From: Octopus vulgaris
Lineage: Eukaryota
Assembly: GCA_951406725.2 (NCBI GenBank)
Contig: OX597829.1
Location: 21,080,001 to 21,144,000 of the forward strand
Direction of reading: 5' to 3'
Length of the DNA stretch: 64,000 nt
Positions 1,922 to 64,000 of this stretch are shown here, in pieces. Made by a program: the position numbers and the translations under genes. The notes beneath the pieces were generated by a model. The model saw only the letters and a program-made list of their open reading frames with translations, was not told the DNA's origin and searched no databases. The first letter of the stretch is position 1; every line of letters starts with the position of its first letter.

Positions 1922-2196
1922 GCAAGTGCCAAACTCAAGAAAGATGTCGATCAAGAGGTTTCTGAAGATATTCGTGAACTCGTAAACCAACTGAAAAATA
2001 AACTTGAGAAGAATTCTTATCAGGGAACATATTTTGATCGGACTGCTTTGGAAACTGAACGGATTTGTAACTCAGATGGCTTGTTCGAATGTGAAGGGAA
2101 GTTTGATGAAAGTACATGTGAAAACTCACATATGATCAACCCTTATTCATCCAGGCAAAACTGTCTGATGTTTGGTATGTGGGATCTGGATCATAT
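1922..2196 (+). CDS. DFFB: DNA fragmentation factor subunit beta (CAD/DFF40), penultimate coding exon
   Basis: Poly-T tract and AG acceptor at 1920-1921, GTAAGT donor at 2197. Open frame ASAKLKKD...GTYFDRTALETERICNSDGLFECEGKFDESTCENSHMINPYSSRQNCLMFGMWDLDH matches the CAD nuclease domain (YFDR, C-x8-C-x3-H, INPY, WxLDH). Ends in phase 2. Confidence 0.95.
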
Positions 2197-4848: not shown

Positions 4849-6144
4849 AATAAATAAATATATATATATATATATAAGTTTAAGTCACAATGTATGGATT
4901 CAAGTAATCTTTTGAAATTTTAACTTTGTATTCATATAATGTTACGTTGAGAATTTAGTATTTCACTTAGACTTTCTTTTACATGAGGATATAGCTTAAA
5001 TTCTGCATTAAGTAATTTATTTGTTATTAAATATAATATAAATTATGTACATCTTTTTGAATTATGAAACAATTTATCCTGATATTAGAATTGTCTTATT
5101 GTTAAATAAATTTCATCAAACTATTTCTCTGTCATTATGACTTAGGAAATACTATAGAAAATATCTTTATATATAAAGTACATGTCTGAACTACCCAGTG
5201 CGGATCTCTTGACTCAGCTGGGTTGCGCTGTGTGCACACATGGCAGGAATATCAAGTGCAAACACTCCTGCACCAAGTTTTGATATTCAATATTCAAGTG
5301 ATATTGTTTGAGTTAGAAGATTATATTAACCTAGCAAGGTGCCTCATTTTAAGTACCTAATTCAACAGAATCTGAATTAAATATATATATAGTGGAATTT
5401 CCAAAAGACTTTCAGTATAATTAGTTACAAACTGTAGTTTTTCCTTAATTTTTTTATGGTGTACTCCAAAAAATTTCTCGACCTCTTGCATGATCTCTGA
5501 GATGCTTGGAAGAAAAAGGAAGTTCAGGACAATTCAGGGTCAGCTTATCTTAAGACTGGAGACCCGATGCAAATGCATCAGAACTTGGTGAATACTGCTG
5601 AAGGTACTTACCTACCTACCTAACAGCCAGATGGTGGTATTTTATCTGGAAGAGAGATTAATTCTACCATGTAAGAACAAGTATGATCTATTTGATGGGC
5701 TTCTGCACAGTCTTGATTTACTCATTTTCATTCACAGTCAAATGATGTCTTTGTGAAGCAGACTTTTGCCCTACACAGCCAGGTCTGTGTCAATTGGTAT
5801 TGCATTTATATGGAGCTACTCATATCCTTTTTGTAATAGCATGTATGCAGCAACTCAAAACTAAAACAGCAATACTAACTTCACTCACTCTCTAACTCTC
5901 TCTCTCTCTCTCTCTCTCTTTCACTTCCTCTCTCAATTCCTCTCTCTCTCTCTCTCTCTCAAACTAACAAATTTTTAAAAATATAATTCTATATTTTCAC
6001 ACATTTTAATTTTTTGATTTGTAAATATATTTACAAATATAATAAAATTTAATTCTTTTTTGTAATAAAAATTTTTCTGTTGTTTGAATTTTTATTTTAT
6101 TTAAAACCAAATTTGTTTTCTCATAGTTTTCATTCAACCCCCAC

Positions 6145-7200
6145 CTTATACTGCATAATCATCATCCTGGTTTTTAAGTATACTTTTCTAATACTAGCTA
6201 CGCAGATGATACAAAAGCCTCTCAGAAGATACAGAACCCTGGAGATGTTGGGCATCTGTAACGTGAGTTGGATGCAATATACAGGTTGGCTGAGGAAAAT
6301 AACATGCAATTTAATGATGGAAAATTCCAAGTCCTGTGCTACCAACACTGGAAGCTCAATGGAAAACAGATAGGATACACTGACCCAGGAGGGATTCCAA
6401 TCCCTGTATCAAAATCAGTGTGTGACCTGAGCATTGACATGAGTAATGATTGTATCTTCCTTGGTGCACATTACCAAGCTAGCAATAAAATGCAGACATA
6501 TGACTGGGTGGATCCTTCGAACTTTCAAAACAAGAGAAAAGGAAACCATGATGGTCTTCTGGGGGACAACCATGATGGTCCTCTGGAGGACTTTTATTCT
6601 CAGCCATCTGGATTACTGCTCCCAACTGTGGTCATCAAACAGTGTAAAATCAATGATGGAATTTGAGGTGATCCAGCGAAGCTGCACAAGGAAGATCAAT
6701 ACAATGCAACATGTTGCTTACTGGGAGAGACTGAATGAGTTAAGACTCTACTTCCTGGAGTGAAGGTGGGAAAGATATGCAGTAATATACATCTGGAAAA
6801 CCCTAGAAAATCTTGTTCCAAACTTTGGCGTTGTCACTCACACAAACAGCAGGATGGGGCGCTACTGTATGGTGCCAAAGATCCCAACATGGCCAATACT
6901 GCAACAGTTTGGGCTTCAAAGGCCCACAGCTCTTCAGTTTCTTCCCACAAAGCTTGAGAGACCTACATGGCATAAATGTAGGCTTTTTTGAAACAAAATT
7001 AAATTTCCTGTCAAGATTTAGTTTTGCCCAGAGGTAGAGTTCCAGATGAATCTACCTCTGGGCAAGAAACACAGATGAGGCCAGCAACATCAAACTTGCT
7101 CATCCACCAAATGTGATGTATCAGATGAGGTTTAGTGAAAGTATAGCAAAGTAAACGGTGGTATCCCAGCATGGCCGCAGTCCATGGACTGAATTTTAGA
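6145..7200 (+). mobile_element. CR1/L2-type LINE, 3' RT fragment (decayed)
   Basis: YADDTK, NNMQFNxxKF, HLDYCSQLWS, YWERLNELRLY motifs with frameshifts; tail GGTATCCCAGCATGGCCGCAGTC. Confidence 0.85.
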
Positions 7201-7225: not shown

Positions 7226-7258
<33 letters not shown>

Positions 7259-7262
<4 letters not shown>

Positions 7263-7730
7263 CTTACAGAATAAGGGCAAAAGAAAAATTCTAATGCCAA
7301 ATATGCTGAAAAAAAGACAAAATTGTCAATAACCATTATAATTTATGCGTCTCGAAACAATCCGTTATTACTGTATTGGTCCCAATTTCGGGGTTAATTC
7401 ATAAGGTTAATCCATGGGTATGAGTAAGTATTTCATTTAAGTCTTACGTATTTATCGCTGAAGAGGGGAAAATTCTTATGAATTAACCCCAAAATTGGGA
7501 CCAATATGGTAATAACGGATTTTTTAGAAATTTCTATCAGTTTGTTTCAAGACGCATAAATTATAATGGTTATTGACAATTTTGTGTATTTTTTGGCATA
7601 TTTGGCATTAGAATTTTTCTTTTGCCCTTATTTTGTAAGTTATTTATAAATTTAACCTTTAAAGGTATTTTTTGATATGCCGGTCGTTGATAAAATTTTT
7701 TTTCGAAAAAAATTTTATCCTACATTAATT
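7259..7730. mobile_element. Fold-back element in (TA)n with degenerate hammerhead (7453-7506)
   Basis: Arms 7259-7405 and 7475-7643. CTGAAGA 7458-7464, stem II GGGG/CCCC, GAAA kept in the left-arm copy, cleavage triplet degenerate. Confidence 0.75.
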
Positions 7731-12410: not shown

Positions 12411-13207
12411 ACTTTGAACGTAAACTAGTAAAAATAAGCTATCCACACAGTAACTATATACAAAAATGTGTTGAAATATCATCTTCTGGAATATACATAT
12501 ATCATCATTATCATCATCATTTAGTGTCCATCTTCCATGTATGCATGGGTGGGATGGTTGACAGGAGCCAGCCAGTTAGAAAAACTACCCTAGGTTACTG
12601 TGTCTGTTTTGACAGGGTTTTTACAGCAGGATGTCCTTCCTAACACCAACCACTATGCAGAATGGACTCAGTGCTTTTTACATGGCACTAGCACAGGTGT
12701 AGTTAGTTTTGGTATAATTTTTACAGCTGGATACCCTTCCAAACATCAACCATGTTACAGTGTTAACTAGATGCTTTTAACGTGGCACCAGCACAGGTAG
12801 GGTAACCAAGTAACTCACAAGACAAGTAATTATGAGAGGGGCAGGGCATTCAAGGAGAGAAACTTAAGGTTACAGTGTTACAAAGACACAGAGACAGAAG
12901 CAGGTGTCTTGCAACTAGAGGTGGGGTATTAGAGGAGATGATCCAGTATCAAATGATGAAAGGTTAGAATGTAACAGGGAAATAGAGAGACGATTTGACT
13001 GAGGTCTGGCGATCCAGATGGCTGCACCAGACTCCAATCTAATCTGGCAGTGTTTCTACAGCTGAATGCCCTTCCTAAAGCCAACCACTCCAAGAGTGTA
13101 ATGGGTGCTTTTACATCCCACCGGCATGAGGGCCAATCAGGTGGTACTGGCAACAACCACACTCAAATGGTGTTTTATATCTATATATCTATATATATAT
13201 ATATATA

Positions 13208-14099
13208 TACAATCAACCAATAAAGGTGAGAAAATTGGGTACTAATTTAATAGCACATCCATTTACCACCAAGTGGCTTAGTGCATAAAAAACCCAGATT
13301 ACGACACATTTTATACATAAATATAAGAGAGTGACCACCATGTGGTCTACTCTAGCACTAAAAATAGATCCGCAAGGTTTCAGCCACAAAAGAAATTGTT
13401 TCCGTTGAAAGTTAGCACGACTACTAGCGCAAATGAACTAATCTGCATTTTTGTTATTTTTATTTGCCCTGTTCGTTTGCGCTAGTAGTCGTGCTAACTT
13501 TCAACGGAAACAATTTCTTTTGTGGCTGAAACCTTGCGGATCTATTTTTAGTGCTAGAGTAGACCACATGGTGGTCACTCTCTTATATTTATGTATAAAA
13601 TGTGTCGTAATCCGGGTTTTTTATGCACTAAGCCACTTGGTGGTAAATGGATGTGCTATTAAATTAGTACCTAATTTTCTCACCCTTATCGTTTGATTGT
13701 AATTATGCTGCATTTAATTTTGGATGTAGTATTTGTTTCCGTGAATTTTGGCGGGCGATGACAGGGGCACTTGAATTATAACAGCAAGTACAATCGACTC
13801 AACTGCACGTGCGTTTATCGTTATGGTGAAGTCTAGCGTGCGATCGGGTAAATTGTATTCTGGATGGGTTCGGCTGAGGAGCTACAGATGAATTTATGTA
13901 AGTAAAAGCACATAATTTATTAATAGCGAAACAATTGTCTTGAACTAATCTACATTTTGTTATGTTTATTTGCCCTGTCCATTTGTGCTGGTAGTAGTGC
14001 TAACTTTCAACGGAAACAATTTCTTTTGTGGCTGAAACCTTGCGGATCTATTTTTAGTGCTAGAGTAGACCACATGGTGGTCACTCTCTTATATTTATG

Positions 14100-14103
<4 letters not shown>
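13208..14103 (+). mobile_element. Hammerhead-bearing non-autonomous Penelope-like/retrozyme-like insertion: inverted copy + 507-nt unit + partial unit, in (TA)n
   Basis: 13208-13438 is the reverse complement of 13471-13701; 13941-14102 directly repeats 13434-13595; (TA)n on both sides; intact hammerhead at the unit junction. Confidence 0.88.
13868..13945 (+). ncRNA. Type I hammerhead ribozyme
   Basis: Stem I GTTCGG/TTGAAC; core CTGAGGA 13874-13880; stem II GCTA/TAGC; GAAAC 13928-13932; palindromic AATT; GTC cleavage triplet 13937-13939. Confidence 0.9.
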
Positions 14104-14132
<29 letters not shown>

Positions 14133-14889
14133 TTATGTATGTATGTATCGTCATCATCATTGTTTAGCGTCCGCTTTCCATGTTAGCATGGGTTGGACGG
14201 TTTGACTGGGGTCTGGGAAGCCAGAAGGCTGCACCAAGCCCAGTCTGATCTGGCAATGTTTCTACGACTGGATGCCCTTCCTAACGCCAACTACTCCGTG
14301 AGTGTAGTGGGTGCTTTTTACGTGCCAGACAAGGCTGGCAAACAGCCACGATCGGATGGTGCTTTTTACGTGTCACCGGCACGGATGCCAGTCGGGGCGG
14401 CGCTGGCAATGGCCATGTTCGGATGGTTCTCTTACGTGCCACCAGCACTGGTATCACAGCTACAATTTCCATTGATGTTGATCGATTTTGATTTTGATTT
14501 TGATTCTGATTCTCACTTGCCTCAACAGGTCTTCACAACTAGAATTCTGTGTCCCAAGAAGGAAAGGTATGCATAAGTGGACCAGCTACATCCCAGGTAG
14601 AGGCCACGGGTTATGGTCTCACTTCTCCTGCCAGATCTTCTCATGCACAGCATACTTCCATAGGTCTCGGTCTCTAGTCATTTCCTCGGTGAGACCTAAA
14701 GTTCAAAGGTTGTGCTTCACCACCTCGTTCCAGGTTTTCCTGGGTCCACCTCTTCCACAGGTTCCCTCAACTGCTAGGGTGTGGCACTTTTTCACACAAC
14801 TATCTTCATATATATTGTTGGTAAAAATTATAAATCTGAAAAAGAAGCATACTGTAAGTTATAGAGCAATAAAGTATAGCAATAAAAAT

Positions 14890-15083
14890 AGATATGGCCT
14901 GTCTATGGGGTTGCACTGGGTTTCATATCCATAAAGCACTTAGCTTTACAGTGTTTCTTCAGACCATAGGCCTATGGTCTCTGTTGCTAGAGAAGCCATA
15001 GGCCTAGGGTTTGAAGAAACACTGTAAAGCTAAGCGCTTTATGGAAGTGAAACCCAGAGTAATCCTATGGACCAGCCATATCT
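14890..15083. mobile_element. Fold-back element with a degenerate hammerhead in each arm
   Basis: Arms 14890-14982 and 14989-15083. Minus arm GGT-CTGAAGA...GAAAC-CCAGT-GCA-ACC; plus arm GGGT-TTGAAGA...GAAAC-CCAGA-GTA-ATCC. Confidence 0.7.
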
Positions 15084-15273
15084 CATATATCATATATATA
15101 TACACATACATACAAATGGCGGTGCCCCAGCATGGCCACAGCTCGTGAGCTGAAACTAGATAAAATAAAATTTAAAAAAATACACATGTATATGTATATG
15201 TACATTCAATTAGTGTCTGCTGAAATGATTTGAAACTAAAATATCTAATAACATAACGGTATATCTTTTCTAC

Positions 15274-16469: not shown

Positions 16470-16749
16470 AGTTCAAATTTTCAAATTTATAGAAAAGCAA
16501 TGATGAAGACAGGCGTAGGAACAACAAGTAAGTGTATTAGTTTGGTACTCAGGAAAGAATGGAAAAGTCTTTTATGTTTAGAGCCTATGCTCTTCAATAG
16601 GAAGGAATAAGAGAAAATAGAGGGAGAATGAAAAAAAAACATGGTGAATTCAGTGGTCCAACATGGTGAATCTATATATATATAGATTCACCGTGTTGGA
16701 CCACTGAATTCACCATGTTTTTTTTTCATTCTCCCTCTATTTTCTCTTA
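16470..16749. mobile_element. Fold-back element centred on a short TA run; same family at 46095-46290, related ends at 27818-27917 and 47740-47820
   Basis: Arms 16608-16672 and 16685-16749; hammerhead-like motif on the minus strand 16568-16605. Confidence 0.72.
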
Positions 16750-23969: not shown

Positions 23970-25349
23970 AATTGCCATAAAGGCATTACACAGAGGGGGA
24001 CACTACAACACATGTGGGGACATATAACAATTAAAAATATAAAAATAAAATATGATATAATGAATGACACATGAAAAACAAATTAAAATATGATAACATG
24101 AATGATATCTGAAAATGATATTATGAAGAGTGTGCTATTCATCCCACACTAAGTAACACCACTCGCCGCCTCTGGGTCCTAAGTCCTTTTTCTCTTTCAG
24201 TCCAATCCTTTTACCCCTTTCTTCATCACTTAGTGACATCATTCTCTCCGCCATGCATTCGTAACCTTTTTCACTGGGAGTGGGAGCGGGTCATCTAAAT
24301 TTTGTGGTGTCTGTTCTTTCTTCTTTTTTCCTTGCGGGGAAATGGGATGGGTAGGTTTGGTGTCTGTATGGGGAGGGTGGGTCTGAATGGTTTTGGGTGG
24401 GATGGAGTTGGACTGAGGTACCACATCATACTCAGTGCTTTTTCTTTTTTTCTCTTTCTCCTTCTGCTTTCTGTAACTTTCCATTCTTCCTCCTTTTCCT
24501 CCATCTGTCTTTTCTTCCTCTCTTTTCTCTTCCATCTTCACAACTGTTTCCTCAGCCATTGTCCTCTGTAGAGGGCAGTGTGCTCTAATGTGGCCCTTTT
24601 GGTCACATTTAAAACAATGTGGTACTCTGCCCACACCCTCAGCATGATTTCCCCCAATTCTGCCACATTCTCCAGTTGACCCTCCTCTGTCTGAAAAATG
24701 AGTTTAAGTGTCTTTCCTTTCCACCCTCCTTCTTCCATTTCTGTGGCTTGGACGACAGCCACATTCTGCTCGCTTTCAAGGACAGCTGCCACTACTCAAG
24801 CCACTTCTATATCCAGTGGAATTGCTTCTACCCTCACCTTGGAAGTCTTTCTTCCAAGGTATGTGGGCAGAAGCACTGCTTCCTCTGTTTTCACCACCAC
24901 ACTTGCCAGCCTCCTTACCTCCTCTACTGTCCTAAATTGGATGACTGTTGTCCCATATCTTCTTCCTTTGGTTATGTACATTATCTCCTTTGATCGTTCC
25001 CTCAACGTCTTTTCCACTTCTGCCTTTTTTACCTTTCAATGAGTGTACCTTATAGGTGATCGTTTTCTTCTCCATCCTCTCCATAATTCCTTTGGGGAGT
25101 GACAACTTCATGTCACCGATCACCTTCTGAGCCATCTTTTCATACTTTTTCAGACCAGCCAAATCCAGCTCCCTTCGCTTCACCTCCGTGGTTTTAGCAA
25201 AACTCCTTGTCTTCAACACTCCATCCTTCTTTATGACCGCCCTTACCAGCTCCTCCTTTGATGACGACAACTCAGACCCATCTTGTAAGCAACACAAAAA
25301 ACCATGACTCTTACAAAATCCAGACAGCAAATAACCCAACGCATGCACA
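23970..25349 (-). mobile_element. ORF1/gag-only retroelement (1.38 kb) with CCHC knuckle, inserted in a SINE
   Basis: Four consecutive broken ORFs with CFKCDQKGHIRAHC in the last; TSD GAA(A/G)CAAGCTTC at 23958-23969 and 25350-25361; the host SINE resumes after the TSD. Confidence 0.8.
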
Positions 25350-25758
25350 GAAGCAAGCTTCTTACCGCACCACCATTCCTGCGCCTATATATATAGGTAC
25401 AGACAACATGGCTGTGTAGTAAAGACAGTTGCTTAGCAACTAAGTAGTTTCAGGTTCAGTCCAACAGTGTGGCACCTTAGGCAAGTGTCCTCTACAGAAA
25501 CTGTAACCCCAGGTTGACCAATGCCTGGTGAGTGAATTTGGATGCATGTGTGTCTTTGTGTTTGTGTTTGACTCTACCACTGTTTGACAGCTAGTGTTGT
25601 TTTGTGCATGCCACTATAACTTAGCAGTTCAGTAAAAGATACTAATGAAATGACTATCACTTAATAAAAAATAAGAACTAGCATTGATTTGTTTGACTAA
25701 GCACTTTAAAGATGTACCCCAGTGTAACTGCAGTTAAATGACTGAAACATGTAAAAGA

Positions 25759-27983: not shown

Positions 27984-30091
27984 ATCATCATCATCTTAAA
28001 AAGTTTGTGTTTCATGCTAGCATGGGTTGAACGGTTTGACGGAATCTGATGGTCCGAGGACTGCATCAGGCTCCAGTGTCTACTGATTTGGCTACATTGG
28101 CATAATTCCTACAGGTGGATGCTCTTCCTAATGCTAACCACTTTACAATGTGTTGTGGGTGTTTTTTTTCTTTTGTACCACCAGTAACAGAGAGGTTTGC
28201 ACCTAGGAAGTTACCCTCCGAGGCCCAAGTCCAGGCAAGGTTGTTTCTGGAAGACCAGCAATTGCCCATGCATACCAGCCTTCCCTCTCCATGCCACCAA
28301 GGTTATCCAAGGGAAAGGCAAAGGCCAAATAGTTTGGAACTAGTGATGTCACAATACATTTCTACAGCTGAGTGAATTGGAGCAATGTAAAATAAAGTGT
28401 CTTGCTCAAGAACATAACACACAACCTTGTCTGGGAATCAAACTCATTATCTCATGAGTGTGAGCCTGCTGCTCTAACCACTGAGTCATGTTGCCATCTT
28501 GCAAGGCTTTGTTCAGCCCAAGGCTATTGTAGAAGACACTTGCCCAAAGTGCCATGCAGTGGGACTGAACCCAGAACCATGTGGTTGGGAAGCAAACTTC
28601 TTACCACACAGCCACTCCTATATATATATATGTTACAGCATTTTAAACATTACTCTTTTGTTAGTGTATATTTTACCATGGGTGGATGGGTCCTCTTTTG
28701 CACTACATATCACCAGTTAGCAGAGTCTTTGCTATCTCCTCCTTAAGACGAAGCATCTTCAGATCAGCCTTCAACTCTTTATCCCCTCTTCCATAGGTCC
28801 CATTAACTCAGAGTGCATGGTACTTTTCATACGAGCCATCATCCTTCATACACATTACATGCCCATACAACAAAGCCTCCTCCACTCTTGTACATTACAC
28901 CTTATGTCCAGTTTCTCTCTTGGGTCATTTGCTTTCTGTTATTTATGTACTAACTTTATACATCAATTCAAACCTGCTAGCTTTCTAGTCTTTGCAAGTC
29001 TTCTGTATGCAAGGCCTGTGTTTCACTAACATGCAACATCACAATTCTAACACAAATATCATGTTAAAAAGGGCATCCTGCCATAGAAAGCAAGCTAGAT
29101 CAGAATGGAATCTGATGCAGCTCTCCTGCTTGCTAGCTCAGGTCAAACTGTCCAACTCATGCCAGCATGGAAAACAAACTCTAAATGATGATGATGATAA
29201 TGCTGCTGCTGCTGTGGTTGTTGTTGTTGTTAAGCAACAAGACGGGTAAGGGTGATTTAGGTGTTGGTCTAGGGCTTAGGGGCAGGAGACCCCAGACCTT
29301 GGAAAAAAAAAAGAAAACTTTGGTCGTCTTGTTGTAGTCGAGGACTCTTCGTTGACACCCAACACCACTGGGAGGTGGCCCTTGAAGTCGCTGGAGATGG
29401 GGATCCCCAAGTCCAAATTCTTGAATGGCAGATGCTGCTGCTGCTGATGTTTACCATAATTCTTTAAATGAAGACCAATCCATCCATAATGCAACTATAT
29501 CCTTTAAATGAAATTTTTTTTTGGTCACGTGTAAACATCATCATAAACATCATCTGATGCTGCTGTTGATGATGTTTACACATGACCAAAAAAGAATTTC
29601 ATTTAAAGAATATGGTTGCACTATCTTTACAACACATTTAACAACAACAGCAAGCAATTTGCAGCACTTTAGGTCGTATTTTTCATGGCAACAGGAAACC
29701 ACCTTCAACAAGACAGCACAACAGTAAAATATTGAGTTCATTGGAAATTACAAAAGTGAAGGTACAATGTGAAGAAATATATTCTAATGAGGACCTGCTA
29801 TAAAAAAATCGTTAAATAATCAACTCAAGATTTATGAGGATTAAGATTATATTGATTAGATTGCCAAGAGAAACAAATAGGAACAGAGTTCCATAAGATG
29901 GATACTGGAGGAAAGAAACAACTAGAGTAGCAATGCTTCTTCAAGGGGGGAGAGAACTGCAAAAAGATGAGAATTAGCAGACAGACAAGTTACTTGTTTA
30001 GTAACTTTAAGAGAAAGTTCGAGAGAAGAAATTTTAGCAGAACAAGGTCTATAGAAGTCATCACTGCTTTTAACATTCACTTTTCCATGCT

Positions 30092-40458: not shown

Positions 40459-40791
40459 CTACAGGAGTATATCCATTTCAGTGTTATCTTCAACATTTTC
40501 ATCTTTTACCTCTTCTTTTTTAACGTCTTGTTCTCCATCATCTGCTGGCTTTTTCATCTCAGCTCCCTCCTCTGGTTTCTCCTCCTCATGCTCTTCCCCC
40601 TTTTCCATTACTCTTTCTTTCTCTCCCTCCACCTCTTCTTTCTTTGGTTCTACAGAAGGCTCTGATGATACAGCAGGCAATGTTGCCACAATATTGTCAT
40701 CATGGGTTTTCATGGAATCATCATCAGTGACTGCATTAGATACATTGTTTTCTATTGGTTGACCAAATTCATCGCTACTTTTGAAGGTTTG
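40459..40791 (-). CDS. Terminal coding exon of an unidentified minus-strand gene (E/K/D-rich acidic tail)
   Basis: Pyrimidine tract plus CAG acceptor (plus-strand CT at 40792-40793). Phase-0 open frame QTFKSSDEFGQPIENN...EPKKEEVEGEKE...NTEMDILL* in non-repeat sequence. Confidence 0.75.
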   Translation of the reverse strand, partial: QTFKSSDEFGQPIENNVSNAVTDDDSMKTHDDNIVATLPAVSSEPSVEPKKEEVEGEKERVMEKGEEHEEEKPEEGAEMKKPADDGEQDVKKEEVKDENVEDNTEMDILL

Positions 40792-45637: not shown

Positions 45638-45674
<37 letters not shown>

Positions 45675-45677
<3 letters not shown>

Positions 45678-46049
45678 TCAAAGTGAGTTATCTACAGTAG
45701 CGGTAACACATCGTGACGTATATTTACCATTTCAATATGGCTAACCCCGAAGGGTGGATGCTACTGTAGTTTTTAGCCCCAGGAGGACACACTCCTCCAG
45801 CTGGCCATAGACACACTTTCTGTGTCCTGTCAGTATTTGTCACACGCTGACGAGAGGTCAATACCTCGAAACTCGAGTCCGTGTGTATCATAAGTTGAAG
45901 ACGGGAAGGATGACTTCCCTTTGCAAATACTGACAGGACACAGAAAGTGTGTCTATGGCCAGCTGGAGGAGTGTGTCCTCCTGGGGCTAAAAACTACAGT
46001 AGCATCCACCCTTCGGGGTTAGCCATATTGAAATGGCAAATATATGTCA

Positions 46050-46053
<4 letters not shown>
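45675..46053. mobile_element. Fold-back element in (TA)n with a hammerhead in the spacer
   Basis: Near-identical ~130-bp inverted arms 45710-45839 and 45924-46053, TA runs on both flanks. Confidence 0.88.
45841..45885 (+). ncRNA. Minimal type I hammerhead ribozyme
   Basis: CACACG-CTGACGA-GAGGT-CAAT-ACCTC-GAAAC-TCGA-GTC-CGTGTG; stems I and II perfect, palindromic stem III. Confidence 0.93.
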
Positions 46054-46096
<43 letters not shown>

Positions 46097-46302: not shown

Positions 46303-46860
46303 TTCAGACATGTTTGTTATTGATGAATAAAAGTGTTACATCATGCAAAAAAAAAAACTGTTTCCATCAAATGAATACAGGTAAGAATTAACAATAAGAA
46401 CTTCTTGCAAAACAATACACAGGTCAGCCAAGTCATCTGGTACTATGTACTGTTTTCCAAGAAATTCTCATTATCAATTCTTACCTCTGTTCATCTGATG
46501 CAAACAGTATTTTTGCATGATGTAACACATTTGTTTATCAATAAAGAACACATCTGAAACAGCTGTAGGGAACTGCAACCCATCTGGGTTATTATTTATT
46601 CTTCACCTAACTCGGAACCTTCCATATGTTAGGATCTGGAGTCTATAGCTAAAGTGGAATATGTGCAGTGACTGTACTCCTATATGACTGATAGCACATA
46701 ATAGTATTCAGTCAGTTACTTGTGGATGTATGCATAACTGGGAGGGCAAACCCATGTTTACTTTACTAAGTAGATTGTAAGTACAAAGGTGCGCTATCCC
46801 TGACCCTACCTTGGCCCTTTTACTTCTTAAATACCCAATTCTTTTGAGTCTTGAAAATTT
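46303..46860. mobile_element. Diverged fold-back element between TA runs, with hammerhead remnant 46489-46573
   Basis: Arms ~46303-46420 and 46450-46558; GTTCAT-CTGATGC...GAAAC-AGCT-GTA-GGGAAC. Confidence 0.6.
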
Positions 46861-52469: not shown

Positions 52470-52848
52470 TATATTAGAATCGGGTACTTGAAAAGATATG
52501 CACCAGGTAGAGTTGGATAAATCTCTGGTTCCGGTCTATGGTTGATAAGTATCAAATAGGATATTCCGGTTGTGTACACTGAGAAAACCCACCCTATGAG
52601 TATTTAGCACCTAGGGGCTGGTCCAAAGCATGTGTTACATTGAATTGTTCATTGTTGGTATCCTCTAGGGTGTCCAACAAGTTGTAAATCCCCTTGCTGA
52701 GTTATAATCAAATGAATAGTAACAGATGATGGATAATCGTCGGTTCGTTACAGCTGTTTCTAAAGCATTTTAAAAATAAAAATGCATAAGAAACAGCCGT
52801 AATGACTAGACAATTATCCATCATCTGTTATTATTCATGTGATTTTAT
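52470..52848. mobile_element. Fold-back element with hammerhead 3' halves (GAAACAGCYGTA) at the inner end of both arms
   Basis: Arms 52704-52761 and 52789-52848. Confidence 0.62.
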
Positions 52849-55605: not shown

Positions 55606-56060
55606 GTTAGTTAGTTAGTTAGTTAATTTTTTGGCTCAAAAAGCAAAAAGCAAGGCCATGTAGGGGGACATGGAGTTATGTACAGGGTGGTGTTCATGTA
55701 AAGAGTTCAAGCTACTTGAGGTCAAGGGAGACTTTGAACAAAGCGGTCGTCGGCATCTTCACCATCTCGTCTGGCAGCTTGTTCGACGGATCCGCAACCC
55801 GGACGGAGAAAGCCCCTCTCCTTCGATTGAGATGAAATCGTCGCAGGTAGAGCTTTTCGGAATGACCCCGCAGCCGACGCTCTGGAGCAGGAGTGAAGAA
55901 CAGCTCTTTCGAGAGGTTACACTTTCCGCTTATGATGTTGTGAGCGAGAATGAGATCACCACGGCGGCAGCGTTTTTCTAGAGAATAAAGGTCGAGCGTC
56001 TTTAGCCTTTCTTCATAAGACAAATTCTTGAGACCGTGAACCATGCGGGTAGCCAGCTTC
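55606..56060 (-). mobile_element. Young 5'-truncated CR1-type LINE end with (AACT)n tail
   Basis: ORF GLKNLSYEERLKTLDLYSLEKRCRRGDLI...RLRGHSEKL...FSVRV; CpG-rich; TTAG repeats 55606-55624. Confidence 0.85.
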
Positions 56061-57391
56061 TGGACTCATCCCTCTATGATCATGGATCTCTAGCATTCTT
56101 GATCCTAAGTATTTTTCTCCCAGTTCTCAGTGTCAGTATCACATTTCTGTCGGCTTTCAAGGGATCTTTGAATTTTTCCTTTTGCTCTCCACTTCTTTGT
56201 TTTCTTTCTTTTAGCTGGGAGTAGAGAAGTTGCTTAGTGGTTCCCAAATTGGGTCCATAACTAGGACTGCATTACAGTGACTGCTCCTTTCTTCATGGCC
56301 AGAAGTTACATCAGCTGCCAACAATTACTGAAGTATTAAAAGGTTCAAGTGAGGCCCACAGTGAAGCATCACACTCACATCTTCATTAGTACTGTTATGA
56401 TACACCAATTTTCTAGAGCATGTCTGGAGAAGAGTTAGCCAGCTGATTGGCATAAAGTTATTCATAGATACACTTCAGCCTTTGGTTTGCACATGTACTG
56501 CCACCTCTCTCTGCCATTTTTACTGCCATTATAACTCAGGCATTCACCTAGCTACCAATTTTAAAATTTATTGTGCTGTCATCTTTCTATCTCTCTCCTG
56601 TGGTGTAGAAACTTGAACAGTGTATCAACTTTATGCTATAAAGTGGAATTATTTCCGCATATCTTACTTCAGGAAGATTCTAAGCAAAAGAAGGCAGAAT
56701 AAAATTTCCAGTAAAGAGATTCTTGGGTGTGACAATATCCCCCAGTTTGTCTAGTAAAATGAAGCAAATCCAGCAGTGTTAGGCTGGACAAGTTGTCGGA
56801 ATATCTGACTATACAAAGACAAAAGTAAGCTTTTGAGCTTACAAATGGAAGGTGCAACTGTAAAGTGCACCCAAGACTGTAAAATGAACCTAAACTTTTG
56901 GGAAGCTATTGTACAAGCAAGGACTGCATGGAAGGAAGTCAGCATTAGGTGCTTAAAGGAATTTGTATCTTAAACTGCTAAAGCAGATGCCTGAAGAGAA
57001 GTTCATAAACCACACCCTAACAGCCTTTGATATAAAGGAACATCAATGTACAGTGTGTGGACTAAGAAAAACACTTCTCTATCAGAACAAGCCTTCTCCG
57101 TCAGAGCAGGACCTATAAACATACAGCGCTATTTAGTTTCATAAATGTTATGTCACGTTAGGTGAGGCCAATTTTCCTTTTTTCCTTTGCAAAAAGCATA
57201 AACAAATTTTGAAGGATGAAACCATATGTGAACATAAGATATAAAACATCAATAAATAAGAAAATAATATGCAGAAAATAAATTCACTACAACTGAATAT
57301 TACTGATGGAAATGTCTCTCTTTATCATCCTTTCTGTCTCACTCACATAGAAACATGCACTTATATATACTTATATGTCTCTCTCTCTCTC

Positions 57392-57428
<37 letters not shown>

Positions 57429-57507
57429 TTTGATTTTGATTTTTGATTTTTCTAGTTTCAGCTAATGAGCTGTGGCCATGCTGGGGCACCGCCATATATA
57501 TATATAT

Positions 57508-57762
57508 AATAATTATTATTAAAATTATAATTTAGGGTATCTACGAGATACTGCCACACTGGAAATAGCAGCCAAAACTTAACTCTAAAACCACATTAAA
57601 TGTTCATACAGCACCAGGAGAGAAGACAAAAAGACAAAATAAACTAGCCAAAAATTACTGGATATTTCCAGATCCCGGATTTCTGACTTTGCATAAGAAA
57701 TGCTTTGCCTCTTCAGTGGAATATATGCAGAAAGTAACATAAATACACATATATATACACAC

Positions 57763-57845
<83 letters not shown>

Positions 57846-58110
57846 CATTGTCTTCTCTCCCGGTGCTGTATGAACATTTAATGTGGTTTTAGAGTCAGGT
57901 TTTGGCTGCTATTTCCAGCGTGGCAGTATCTCGTAGATACCCTAAATTATAATTTTAATAATAATTATTACCTTTGAAGGTTTTTATTCCCATGCTGGCC
58001 ACTTGATAAGATCGATATTTAAATTAAGAGAGGAGTGGACAGTGTGCTGTGACCAGCGGTGTCAAATGGATGCCTGATGGACTGGTCGGTCAAGGTGATC
58101 AAGGTGATAT
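57508..58110. mobile_element. Fold-back hammerhead element with central (CA)/(TA) tract
   Basis: Inverted arms 57508-57629 and 57848-57968; TA runs outside and in the middle. Confidence 0.8.
57666..57721 (-). ncRNA. Type I hammerhead ribozyme (AUC site)
   Basis: Minus strand TTCCA-CTGAAGA-GGCAAAGCATTTCTTATGCAAAGTCA-GAAAT-CCGGG-ATC-TGGAA. Confidence 0.75.
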
Positions 58111-58499: not shown

Positions 58500-59699
<1,200 letters not shown>

Positions 59700-60778: not shown

Positions 60779-60961
60779 TCCCTGTTGACTACCTGAAATT
60801 ATCATTAATGTGATTTTTATCCTTATTTTACGTACACACACACACACACATATATAATGGGTTTCTTTTGTTAGTCTGGTGCATGTGTTATTAATATTGG
60901 TGTAATGACTCTCTCCGGACACAACAAAATATATACAACTACACACACACACACACACACA

Positions 60962-63135
60962 CATGCTGATGACCTTGCTCTTATTGCAGAATCTTTAGCA
61001 GAATTGGATAAGAAATTCCAGGTATGGAAACAAAACCTGGAATCAAAGGGCCTTAAAGTCAACCTAGCTAAGACAAAAGTGGTTGTTAGTAAGAAAGAAG
61101 ATAAAACACTCTTTCCATCAGGTAAATGGCCCTGCTCAATATATAGGAAAGGAGTTGAAAGAAATTCCATTTATTGCACCTAGTGTAAACTATGGATACA
61201 TAAGAGATGCAGTGGTATCACAGGTAGATTGACAGATAAAATCATCTTTGTATGTGGCAGATGTGCAGGAACAATAAGCACTAAGAGCACACAGGAATTA
61301 GATTCTCTCAAATATCCAGGAGGCTCTCTTGAGGTTGTAAATAGTATCTGTTACCTAGGTGACCAAATTAGCAATGGTGGAAGATGCTCTGAAAATATTG
61401 TTTCTAGAATAAGAATTGGTAGGAGGAAGTTCAGTGAGCTATTTAGCTCTGTTGGCAACAAACAGATTCTCTCTCAGAGTGAAAGGTAGACTACATGATG
61501 TTTGTGTGCGAATGGCTATAATCCATGGTAGTGAGATATGGGCTCTGAATGGAGAAGACATCGGTAGACTGGAGAGAAACAAAGGTAGTATGCTCCGTTG
61601 GATGTGCAACATTGGTGCATATGTACGGCAAAGTGCAAATGTATTGAGAGAAAAGTTGGGCATAAGAGGAATCAAATGTAGCATGCAAGAGAAAAGACTA
61701 CATTGGTTTGGACATGTGATGTGTGTGAATGAAAACAGCTGCATGAAGAAGTGCCGATCACTGAAAGTGGATGGTACCCATGGAAGAGGGAGACCCAGGA
61801 AGACATGGGATGAAGTGGTAAGAACTGATCTCAGGAAGTTGGGCCTCTTGGAGGAAATGTCAATGGACCAAGATGTCTAGCGATATGAAGTTCTTGAGAA
61901 GACCTACCCATGTCAGAAAAACTGAGTTTTAGAAGCATTGTGTATCCCACCCACACTTAACAAGAAAACTTCTCACACACTCTACCACAACAAACCAAAC
62001 TATGTCTCTACATCTCTTCTCTTCCCTCAATATTTCTGCTTCATGTACTATGTTTACCTCCCACTCCCCAGTCCTGTCCTCTTGGCCCTGTGCCACTGTA
62101 TCATTGCTCTCCCTTAGTCCCTAACCTGTGTATTCCACCTACACATCCTGTCTCACTGTATTACTGCTATCTGCTGGCCCCCCCGACCTGTGTGTTCCAC
62201 CCACACATAACAAGAAAACTTTTCACTCACCCTACCCCAACAAACCAATCTACATCTCCACAACTCTTCTCTTCCTCACATTTCTTCCTTCATACACTAT
62301 GCCTAACTCTCACTCCCCAACCCTGTCCTCACAGCCCTGTTCCTGTGTACCATTGCTCTCTGGTAGCTGCCTGACTCTATATATGCCCAGTTTTTTCCCC
62401 CTCCCCTCTCTTTAATCACACTTTCTTCGCAATATCCTGCCACTTATATTATTGCATTTTGGACCTCAAGTGTATGCCCTGGCACTTGCCACAACCTATA
62501 TTTCTCTCTTCCTTTACTCAACCATCCCATTTATATTCTGATCCCTGTCCCTTGTGAGTATACTTGGTATTTTGCTATCATCTTTATCATACTGTCTCCC
62601 ACTCTCTCTCTCTCCTTCTCCTGGGCTTCCCTCAGGTTGGGTAACCATGTATTTCCCATGTGGTAGCGCACTTGTTTCTGTCTTCATTCCTAATCTCTCT
62701 CTCTCTTTCTCCAGCCAGGTAACCTTTTACTTCCTCTACAGCAAGACACCTGTTTCTGTCTCTCTGTCTCACTATAACCTTTCATCATCCGACACAATGT
62801 CTCCTCCCCTCTTTTCTTTGTCTTGCAAGTACTTGGTGACCCTGTCAGTGCAGGTGCCACTTAAAAGCACCCAGTCTACACTGTAAAGTGGCTGATGTTT
62901 GGAAGTGCATCCAGCTGTAAAAACCTTGCCAAAACTGACCTTGCCTGTGCTTGTGCTATGTAAAAAGCACTAAGTCCACTCTGCTGAGTGGTTGATGTTA
63001 GGAAGGGCATCCAGCTGTAAAAATCCTGCCAAAACAGTCACAGAAGTCTGCTGCAGACTTCTTCCTGACTGGCTCTAGTCAAACCATCCCACCCATGCCA
63101 GCATGGAAGGTGGATGTTAAATGATGACAATGATT
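60962..63135 (+). mobile_element. 5'-truncated RTE LINE with long 3' UTR and GAT-type tail
   Basis: ADDLALIAES...GLKVNLAKTK, RLHWFGHV, GRGRPRKTWDEVV; 3' end shared with many short copies. Confidence 0.9.
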
Positions 63136-63911: not shown

Positions 63912-64000
63912 AGAATCTTCCCCATGTGTTTTGGAGTCTGCACTGGTCTCCTCATGCAGACTAGGTTTATCCACCGAACTTGAGTCTTTCACAGAAGTTG
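63912..64000 (-). CDS. Internal exon (cut by window edge), probably of the same acidic protein gene
   Basis: Only open frame is TSVKDSSSVDKPSLHEETSADSKTHGEDS, followed by a GTAAGT donor (plus-strand ACTTAC 63906-63911). Phase 0, compatible with the 40791 exon. Confidence 0.65.

Follow-up and report, generated by a model that had tools for sequence, protein, structure and literature searches.

A canonical type I hammerhead motif in a likely Penelope-type hairpin insertion of Octopus vulgaris

Introduction

Insertions of Penelope-like elements (PLEs) are 5′-truncated, often lie beside an inverted truncated copy, often carry a 30–40-bp tail on one end and use microsatellite targets, as described in the accessible text of Craig et al. 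(PMC8557442). In the available sections of Arkhipova et al. (PMC3846280), a 31-bp tail was found on one inverted pLTR and head-to-head joins were the commonest form. Frangieh et al. (PMC11167929, text available in part) described the tail as the interval separating two internal RT start sites and the targets as AT-rich, and reported that the Anolis PLE hammerhead requires the protein and that in vitro insertion proceeds without this hammerhead. A total of 31 recently active Penelope-like families have been recorded in O. vulgaris (PMC13282606 Table 1), and the main text of that study, which annotates Octopus Penelope families, never uses the word "ribozyme".

Canonical metazoan hammerheads have a 6-bp helix I, a 4-bp helix II and a 1–2-bp helix III with a palindromic loop, whereas min-HHRs are without helix III (Cervera and De la Pena, PMC4209133, accessible portion). 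According to the available parts of this source and of PMC7229834, most reports of canonical type I hammerheads concern non-LTR retrozymes, and the hammerheads of PLEs are mostly min-HHRs. In flies, rotifers, shrimps and mosquitoes, however, there are PLE hammerheads whose helix III is small and palindromic (PMC4209133, same portion).

Here, we describe a hammerhead-bearing hairpin in a 64-kb stretch of O. vulgaris DNA (hereafter the window, to which all coordinates refer). The motif is real and of a known kind, it is a new octopus example, and the copy at 45674–46053 is a truncated passenger. No description of an octopus hammerhead family was found in the open literature, a scope outside which lie most subscription papers, Repbase/Dfam and several supplements.

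Results and Discussion

The hammerhead motif

45841–45885, plus strand: type I hammerhead with stem I, core, helix II and palindromic helix III (descriptor and Rfam)

On the plus strand, a 6-bp stem I (45841–46 paired with 45880–85) accompanies the core pieces CTGACGA (45847–53), GAAA (45868–71) and GTC (45877–79), and the palindrome of helix III, ACTCGAGT, lies at 45871–78, with cleavage predicted after C45879. The Rfam model Hammerhead_1 (RF00163) was matched at all 45 of its 45 positions with every pair standard (E 2.4e-6, 371 bases scanned), and the score of 32.2 bits narrowly missed the gathering score of 34. The RF00163 core (C3–A9, G12–A15.1 and U16.1–H17) is intact together with helices I–III, and helix I is open. 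A strict hammerhead descriptor gave one match in the window and none in 150 dinucleotide shuffles; a looser one gave two matches in the window and was found in 1 of 150 shuffles. The Rfam search of the whole window was dominated by microsatellite and miRNA matches, with no hammerhead among the 150 of 254 matches listed.

The motif is a real hammerhead, canonical type I with a palindromic helix III. This agrees with the initial annotation of the locus, which had placed a hammerhead with a 6-bp stem I, CTGACGA, GTC and a palindromic stem III at these positions. The 5-bp stem II of that annotation can be drawn at 45854–67 with a 4-nt loop, but the Rfam alignment reads the same letters as 4 bp with a 6-nt loop. 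Its label "minimal" does not apply, because the layout is that of a canonical metazoan type I hammerhead and unlike the min-HHR of Cervera 2014: helix III is present, helix II has 4–5 bp, there is no extra nucleotide and helix I has 6 bp. Like the RF00163 hammerheads of Schistosoma Sm-alpha and newt satellite 2, the octopus motif matches the model over its full length, keeps all pairs and, with its short palindromic helix III, is predicted to function as a dimer, whereas its score lies below the gathering level, it is solitary rather than tandem, and its distal stem I is cut off.

Anatomy of the insertion

The hammerhead lies in an insertion unit of 380 bp (45674–46053). From left to right, the order is (TA)n, a 36-nt one-sided stretch, the left arm, an 84-nt spacer opening with the hammerhead, the right arm and (TA)n. 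The run X11 named below is one of four sequencing runs compared in the next section.

45642–45673, no strand: (TA)n flank on the left, insertion target, without a discernible TSD (sequence)
45674–45709, minus strand: one-sided 3′ extension or "tail" of 36–38 nt, family sequence (contig depth; X11 records 1 and 2 bridge to the arm)
45710–45839, minus strand: inverted copy, more deeply 5′-truncated (left arm), head-to-head with the direct copy (arm comparison, family contigs)
45837–45840, no strand: inversion junction with 3-nt microhomology (45837–39), where family copies go on upstream with other sequence (contig joints)
45840–46053, plus strand: direct 5′-truncated copy, i.e., hammerhead, 38-nt structured linker and right arm (sequence, arms, family contigs)
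45887–45897, plus strand: 3′ strand left over from the distal helix of stem I, partner strand absent here (contig loose ends compared by eye)
46052–46089, no strand: right (TA)n flank (sequence)

The hairpin arms (45710–45839 and 45924–46053) are 130 nt each with two mismatches, as expected from the earlier description of ~130-bp arms with very few differences. The "intact CpGs" of the same description are only partly borne out: one arm mismatch is a CpG>TpG change (45718/46045), the CpG o/e of the arms (0.42 and 0.28) is window-like (0.31), and the spacer is the only CpG-rich part (1.21). Against (TA)n, the 3′ end of the direct copy can be placed only to within about 2 nt. There is no ORF within the 380-bp element, all three sense-strand frames containing stops, and no partial tandem of direct copies at 45674–46053. 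A window search found a single hammerhead at the locus and no second copy of the element in the 64 kb.

The sense strand of arm plus tail is structured (z −3.66; sense-strand z −3.5 and −3.7). Tail positions 45692–45701 form a perfect 10-bp complement of arm positions 45760–45769, a helix matched in 11 of 5000 shuffled tails, and no variant above 5% was listed across contigs in either of the two pairing segments. The arm end, a putative first RT start, sits inside the region enclosed by this tail–arm helix.

The element family in public sequencing runs

Part of the stretch studied was contained in 20 of the 24 runs listed, spanning 10 organism codes and 12 studies, and four runs were compared in detail. 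Family contigs matched in all four (4176, 3305, 425 and, in X11, 31), and these numbers indicate a large family, with summed contig depth not being equivalent to copy number. The tail is covered to the same extent as the arms, and X11 record 1 (11 differences) and record 2 (4 differences) both read from the tail into the arm. Both records run 25 letters beyond the tail, and the family may extend past it. Other copies leave the stretch near 46044–46053 into mixed, AT-rich flanks of low agreement (22 contigs in run X2 and 30 in run X4).

The joints between copies bear on how the hairpin arose. Among the best 15 of 25 joints, 11 link the left arm to the direct copy, all with different breakpoints and in single contigs, with library chimeras possible among them; one of the 11 breakpoints is present in two runs. 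The letters 45749G/46014C are common to both arms and missing from about 95% of family depth, and hence both arms would come from one template. The length and near-perfection of the inverted repeats, together with TA flanks and a high copy number, could also be read as a MITE, that is, a DNA transposon with 130-bp TIRs and a TA target that captured a hammerhead. However, the arm–spacer junction varies in the family, with a dip in contig depth at 45828–45853, other upstream sequence and the 11 breakpoints, and the tail is one-sided. Since the 11 inversion breakpoints differ, the inversions appear to have been made per insertion, on which ground a MITE is rejected; we consider such an origin highly improbable. 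A MITE with fixed TIRs, a shared interior and symmetric ends is largely refuted by the variable junctions and the one-sided tail in the contigs.

Upstream of the junction, family copies carry a strand that is lost here. Loose ends before 45837 (35, 33, 1 and 8 contigs per run) finish in ACAACTATGA, complementary to 45887–45897, in three of the four runs; the X2 loose end is a noisy two-letter variant of ACAACTATGA with an agreement of 0.56. The upstream strand is thus drawn from consensus loose ends at agreement 0.56–0.64 plus one contig. Compared by eye, the upstream family letters together with T45837 pair with 45887–45897 in a 10-bp helix with one bulge, and a small internal loop separates this predicted distal helix from the 6-bp stem I. 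With distal helix and internal loop, family copies would have a layout permitting the loop 1–loop 2 contact that full-length type I hammerheads need for fast cleavage at low Mg2+ (PMC6155905, available text). Both features are absent in the copy at 45674–46053, where the inversion junction just before stem I removed the partner strand.

Variation across copies is suggestive of a lower variability of the core (0 of 13 versus 23 of 130 positions variable), a difference that is not significant (p = 0.09). In the whole hammerhead, 3 of 45 positions are variable (p 0.054), and the 10-bp helix gave p 0.13, neither of which is significant.

X11 record 4 covers 45837–46029 with one difference (192/193 identical) and then continues for 103 nt further upstream. 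Given the 31 contigs and the different organism code of X11, this record could come from a low-coverage close relative, a transcript or a transfer.

Origin of the insertion

The best explanation of the observed anatomy and family variation is that 45674–46053 is one insertion of a hammerhead-bearing family mobilised by PLE machinery, either as a PLE pLTR or as a non-autonomous derivative, and we regard this as very likely. The initial annotation had not read hairpin and tail as a PLE-type insertion. In common with EN+ PLEs (Penelope/Poseidon, Neptune and Nematis; available parts of PMC8557442, PMC3846280 and PMC11167929), the octopus element has an inverted 5′-truncated copy beside a direct truncated copy, with variable truncation (11 of the best 15 of 25 joints), a 30–40-bp element tail on one end only (36–38 nt here, bridged by two listed contigs), an AT-rich or microsatellite target ((TA)n on both sides and AT-rich loose ends in contigs) and a sense-strand type I hammerhead in a putative pLTR.

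The comparison also yields differences. Unlike the min-HHR of EN+ PLEs, the octopus hammerhead is canonical, with a 6-bp helix I, a 4-bp helix II plus hexaloop and a distal helix in the family; because PLEs mostly carry min-HHRs, this type counts against a PLE origin. No RT or GIY-YIG ORF is linked to the family, which also weighs against the PLE explanation, and scans of metagenomic (two scans), genomic and viral contig collections, where octopus DNA is not expected, gave 0 matches. The octopus element is likened to EN+ PLEs by insertion anatomy. The Naiad PLEs of Octopus (Naiad_Obim and Naiad_Ovul; PMC8557442 supplement, accessible part) share the (TA)n target and the insertion anatomy, whereas they are without canonical hammerheads and, in cephalopods, are reported to have been inactive for a long time (PMC8557442, accessible part). 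Two short motifs of the octopus element were not found in the PMC8557442 supplement.

Under the PLE explanation, a PLE endonuclease would have cut one strand within a run of (TA)n, and reverse transcription would have begun at two internal PLE start sites, so that only one of the two copies received the 36-nt tail. Each copy would have ended early, and the two would have been joined head-to-head through the 3-nt microhomology. Intact family RNA has a distal stem I and its helix III is palindromic, and tandem transcripts of it would thus cleave as double hammerheads, whereas the hammerhead here would be a passenger whose distal stem I strand was lost, with no tandem partner and with the antisense strand transcribed by the host.

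Alternatively, the family could be a classical non-LTR retrozyme, with tandem 170–400-nt units and a circular RNA intermediate, the locus then being a dispersed rearranged monomer and not a pLTR. Retrozymes typically have the canonical type I architecture (PMC4209133 and PMC7229834, available parts), and the octopus family resembles metazoan non-LTR retrozymes (PMC7229834; bioRxiv 10.64898/2026.07.22.740005, both in part) in its structured RNA (z −3.5 and −3.7 for the sense strand), its high copy number, the lack of an ORF in the 380-bp element and a proposed PLE dependence. Moreover, two back-joints among the joints listed (46045>45857 and 45933>45856) are tandem pieces, although their return points lie within the hammerhead, as expected of truncated partial tandems. 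In contrast to retrozymes, the locus has a single copy and no array of tandem 170–400-nt units, and PLE signatures are present in the form of a dimorphic tail, head-to-head inversions and a (TA)n target; none of the runs listed as containing the stretch is recorded as RNA. A purely retrozyme origin is unlikely on balance. It partly merges with the PLE explanation, since retrozymes are derived from pLTRs according to the accessible text of bioRxiv 10.64898/2026.07.22.740005; non-LTR retrozymes have also been proposed to be PLE-mobilised (PMC7229834, in part).

A more specific reading, which we put forward only tentatively, is that this large family of Octopus retroelements is non-autonomous, has been active recently and combines a canonical, retrozyme-type, dimer-dependent hammerhead with the full PLE insertion signature. 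If true, this would be direct insertion-level evidence of PLE machinery mobilising retrozyme-like RNAs, and the tail–arm helix of 10 bp, with the first RT start site enclosed in it, would mark a cis element recognised by the PLE protein. The single locus matters little: family contigs number in the thousands, and this is one clipped copy of the retroelement. The family, in turn, would extend hammerhead-bearing PLE-type elements to octopus and provide a natural series of intact, truncated and tandem copies for studying PLE hammerhead function and the PLE mobilisation of retrozymes.

Predicted folding and activity

The minimum free energy (MFE) structure of the 45-mer was a misfold (−14.5 kcal/mol; forced monomer hammerhead, −8.7), and the hammerhead fold lay about 6–8 kcal/mol above the minimum overall, with 7–8 kcal/mol in longer contexts. 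Stem I was in the hammerhead register with P 0.09–0.14 in longer contexts and about 0.14 in the whole element, and 45837–39 were locked in the 130-bp arm helix in the predicted fold (P 1.0). When two copies were co-folded, the minimum was a double hammerhead (−33.9 versus 2 × −14.5, i.e., −29.0 kcal/mol), in keeping with the earlier proposal of a dimer-type palindromic stem III. In a control permuting the helix III hexamer (between A15.1 and U16.1), the double hammerhead appeared in 19 of the 24 permutations that are palindromic and in none of the 156 that are not. Within the dimer ensemble, the native intermolecular helix III and double hammerhead reached only P about 0.4. Tertiary contacts are left out of the folding models, which also penalise every helix III of 2 bp, so the results suggest a tendency toward the dimer, not proof of inactivity.

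Published assays agree in direction with the predicted dimer dependence: a single min-HHR did not cleave (PMC4209133, available part), and axolotl hammerhead monomers cleaved 6–22% in an hour and dimers much better (PMC7229834, available part). Coral and mussel hammerhead monomers, which do cleave (PMC7229834, same part), go against it. Based on the modelling, the family ribozyme probably works as a dimer.

The copy at 45841–45885 is a poor candidate for activity, and it most probably does not cleave in vivo. It had been put forward in the initial annotation as the best candidate for an active ribozyme, a view that is not supported, given its occurrence as a single copy, the loss of the distal stem I 5′ strand, the monomer fold 6–8 kcal/mol above the MFE and host transcription of the other strand. 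In addition, a second intact-core hammerhead (13867–13946, described below) keeps its predicted distal helix. For this copy to be active, a plus-strand transcript would have to cleave as a monomer, in trans via the palindrome or with a PLE protein. No core nucleotide or Rfam pair is disrupted, folding favours the dimer, the family is seen in run X8 (RNA by guess), and the Anolis PLE hammerhead is protein-assisted (PMC11167929, available text); yet with the distal stem I partner gone, 45837–39 locked in the arm helix, stem I seldom in register in the whole element, no second copy nearby, the opposite strand transcribed by the host and loop–loop contacts required at low Mg2+ (PMC6155905, available text), we judge activity improbable. 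Taken as a joint claim, a PLE-type origin plus in vivo inactivity of this copy appears likely.

Age and host gene

From the two mismatches in 130 bp, we calculated an arm age of ~2 Myr (Poisson range about 0.3–8 Myr), using our own arithmetic calibrated at JC 0.09 = 25 Myr (PMC13282606), which gene conversion or RT error would bias. The "young hairpin" of the initial annotation is accordingly fairly young; the insertion is young for the O. vulgaris genome and may well be fixed. As regards presence/absence polymorphism, the best runs contain 0.64 of the stretch's words, and no listed contig crosses the junction gaplessly, with 7964 further pieces beyond those listed and contigs breaking in repeats.

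40792–63911, minus strand: last intron (23.1 kb) of the host, an Octopus FCHSD2-like gene (protein match and splice donor)

The ORF at 40462–40791 (minus strand) is 100% identical over 110 aa to an O. vulgaris FCHSD2-like protein and 95% to that of O. bimaculoides, the identification being based on 2 matches among 1403 candidates. Because the minus-strand exons lie at 40462–40791 and from 63912 up, the earlier one ending at 63912 with a GTAAGT donor, the host intron is 40792–63911. The plus-strand hammerhead is antisense to it, as had been proposed.

Host pre-mRNA (minus strand, 45710–46053) would carry a 130-bp duplex with two mismatches. We assume that such a near-perfect duplex is a plausible ADAR or Dicer (editing or small-RNA) substrate in a cephalopod. 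Editing-type places showed no excess in run X8, which is RNA only by guess (A>G 6, T>C 8), over the DNA run X2 (5 and 7).

Other features of the window

13208–14103, hammerhead on the plus strand: hairpin of a different family with the same anatomy, i.e., inverted copy and TA-rich flanks (own descriptor)
7248–7654, plus strand: hairpin with a hammerhead-like core at 7452–7512 (own descriptor)
57507–57970, minus strand: hairpin with a decayed hammerhead-like core at 57679–57716 (own descriptor)
14890–15083, minus strand: hairpin with a decayed hammerhead-like core at 14920–14962 (own descriptor)
58590–59174, 16608–16749, 29486–29624, 46303–46558 and 52703–52847: long inverted repeats without a hammerhead under our own descriptors

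Hammerhead cores other than 45841–45885 were identified by our own descriptor, and Rfam gave no hammerhead match in 13200–15110 or 57495–57760. The hairpin at 13208–14103 includes a partial tandem, with 13434–13597 repeated at 13941–14103. Its hammerhead (13867–13946, plus strand) is an intact-core type I whose palindrome measures 8 nt and whose helix II is long; a distal helix is predicted as well, and the co-fold minimum of this hammerhead is a double hammerhead. In the core at 7452–7512, GAAA has become AAAA in that arm and is kept in the complement of the opposite arm. The hairpins at 57507–57970 and 14890–15083 are probably older insertions of the same kind.

ORF fragments at 6053–6763, 55712–56065, 60875–61880 and 24239–25384 resemble, by eye, what we take to be pieces of LINE reverse transcriptases and a zinc-knuckle ORF1. 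An exon-like open segment with good splice sites lies at 1922–2196 (plus strand), possibly belonging to another gene.
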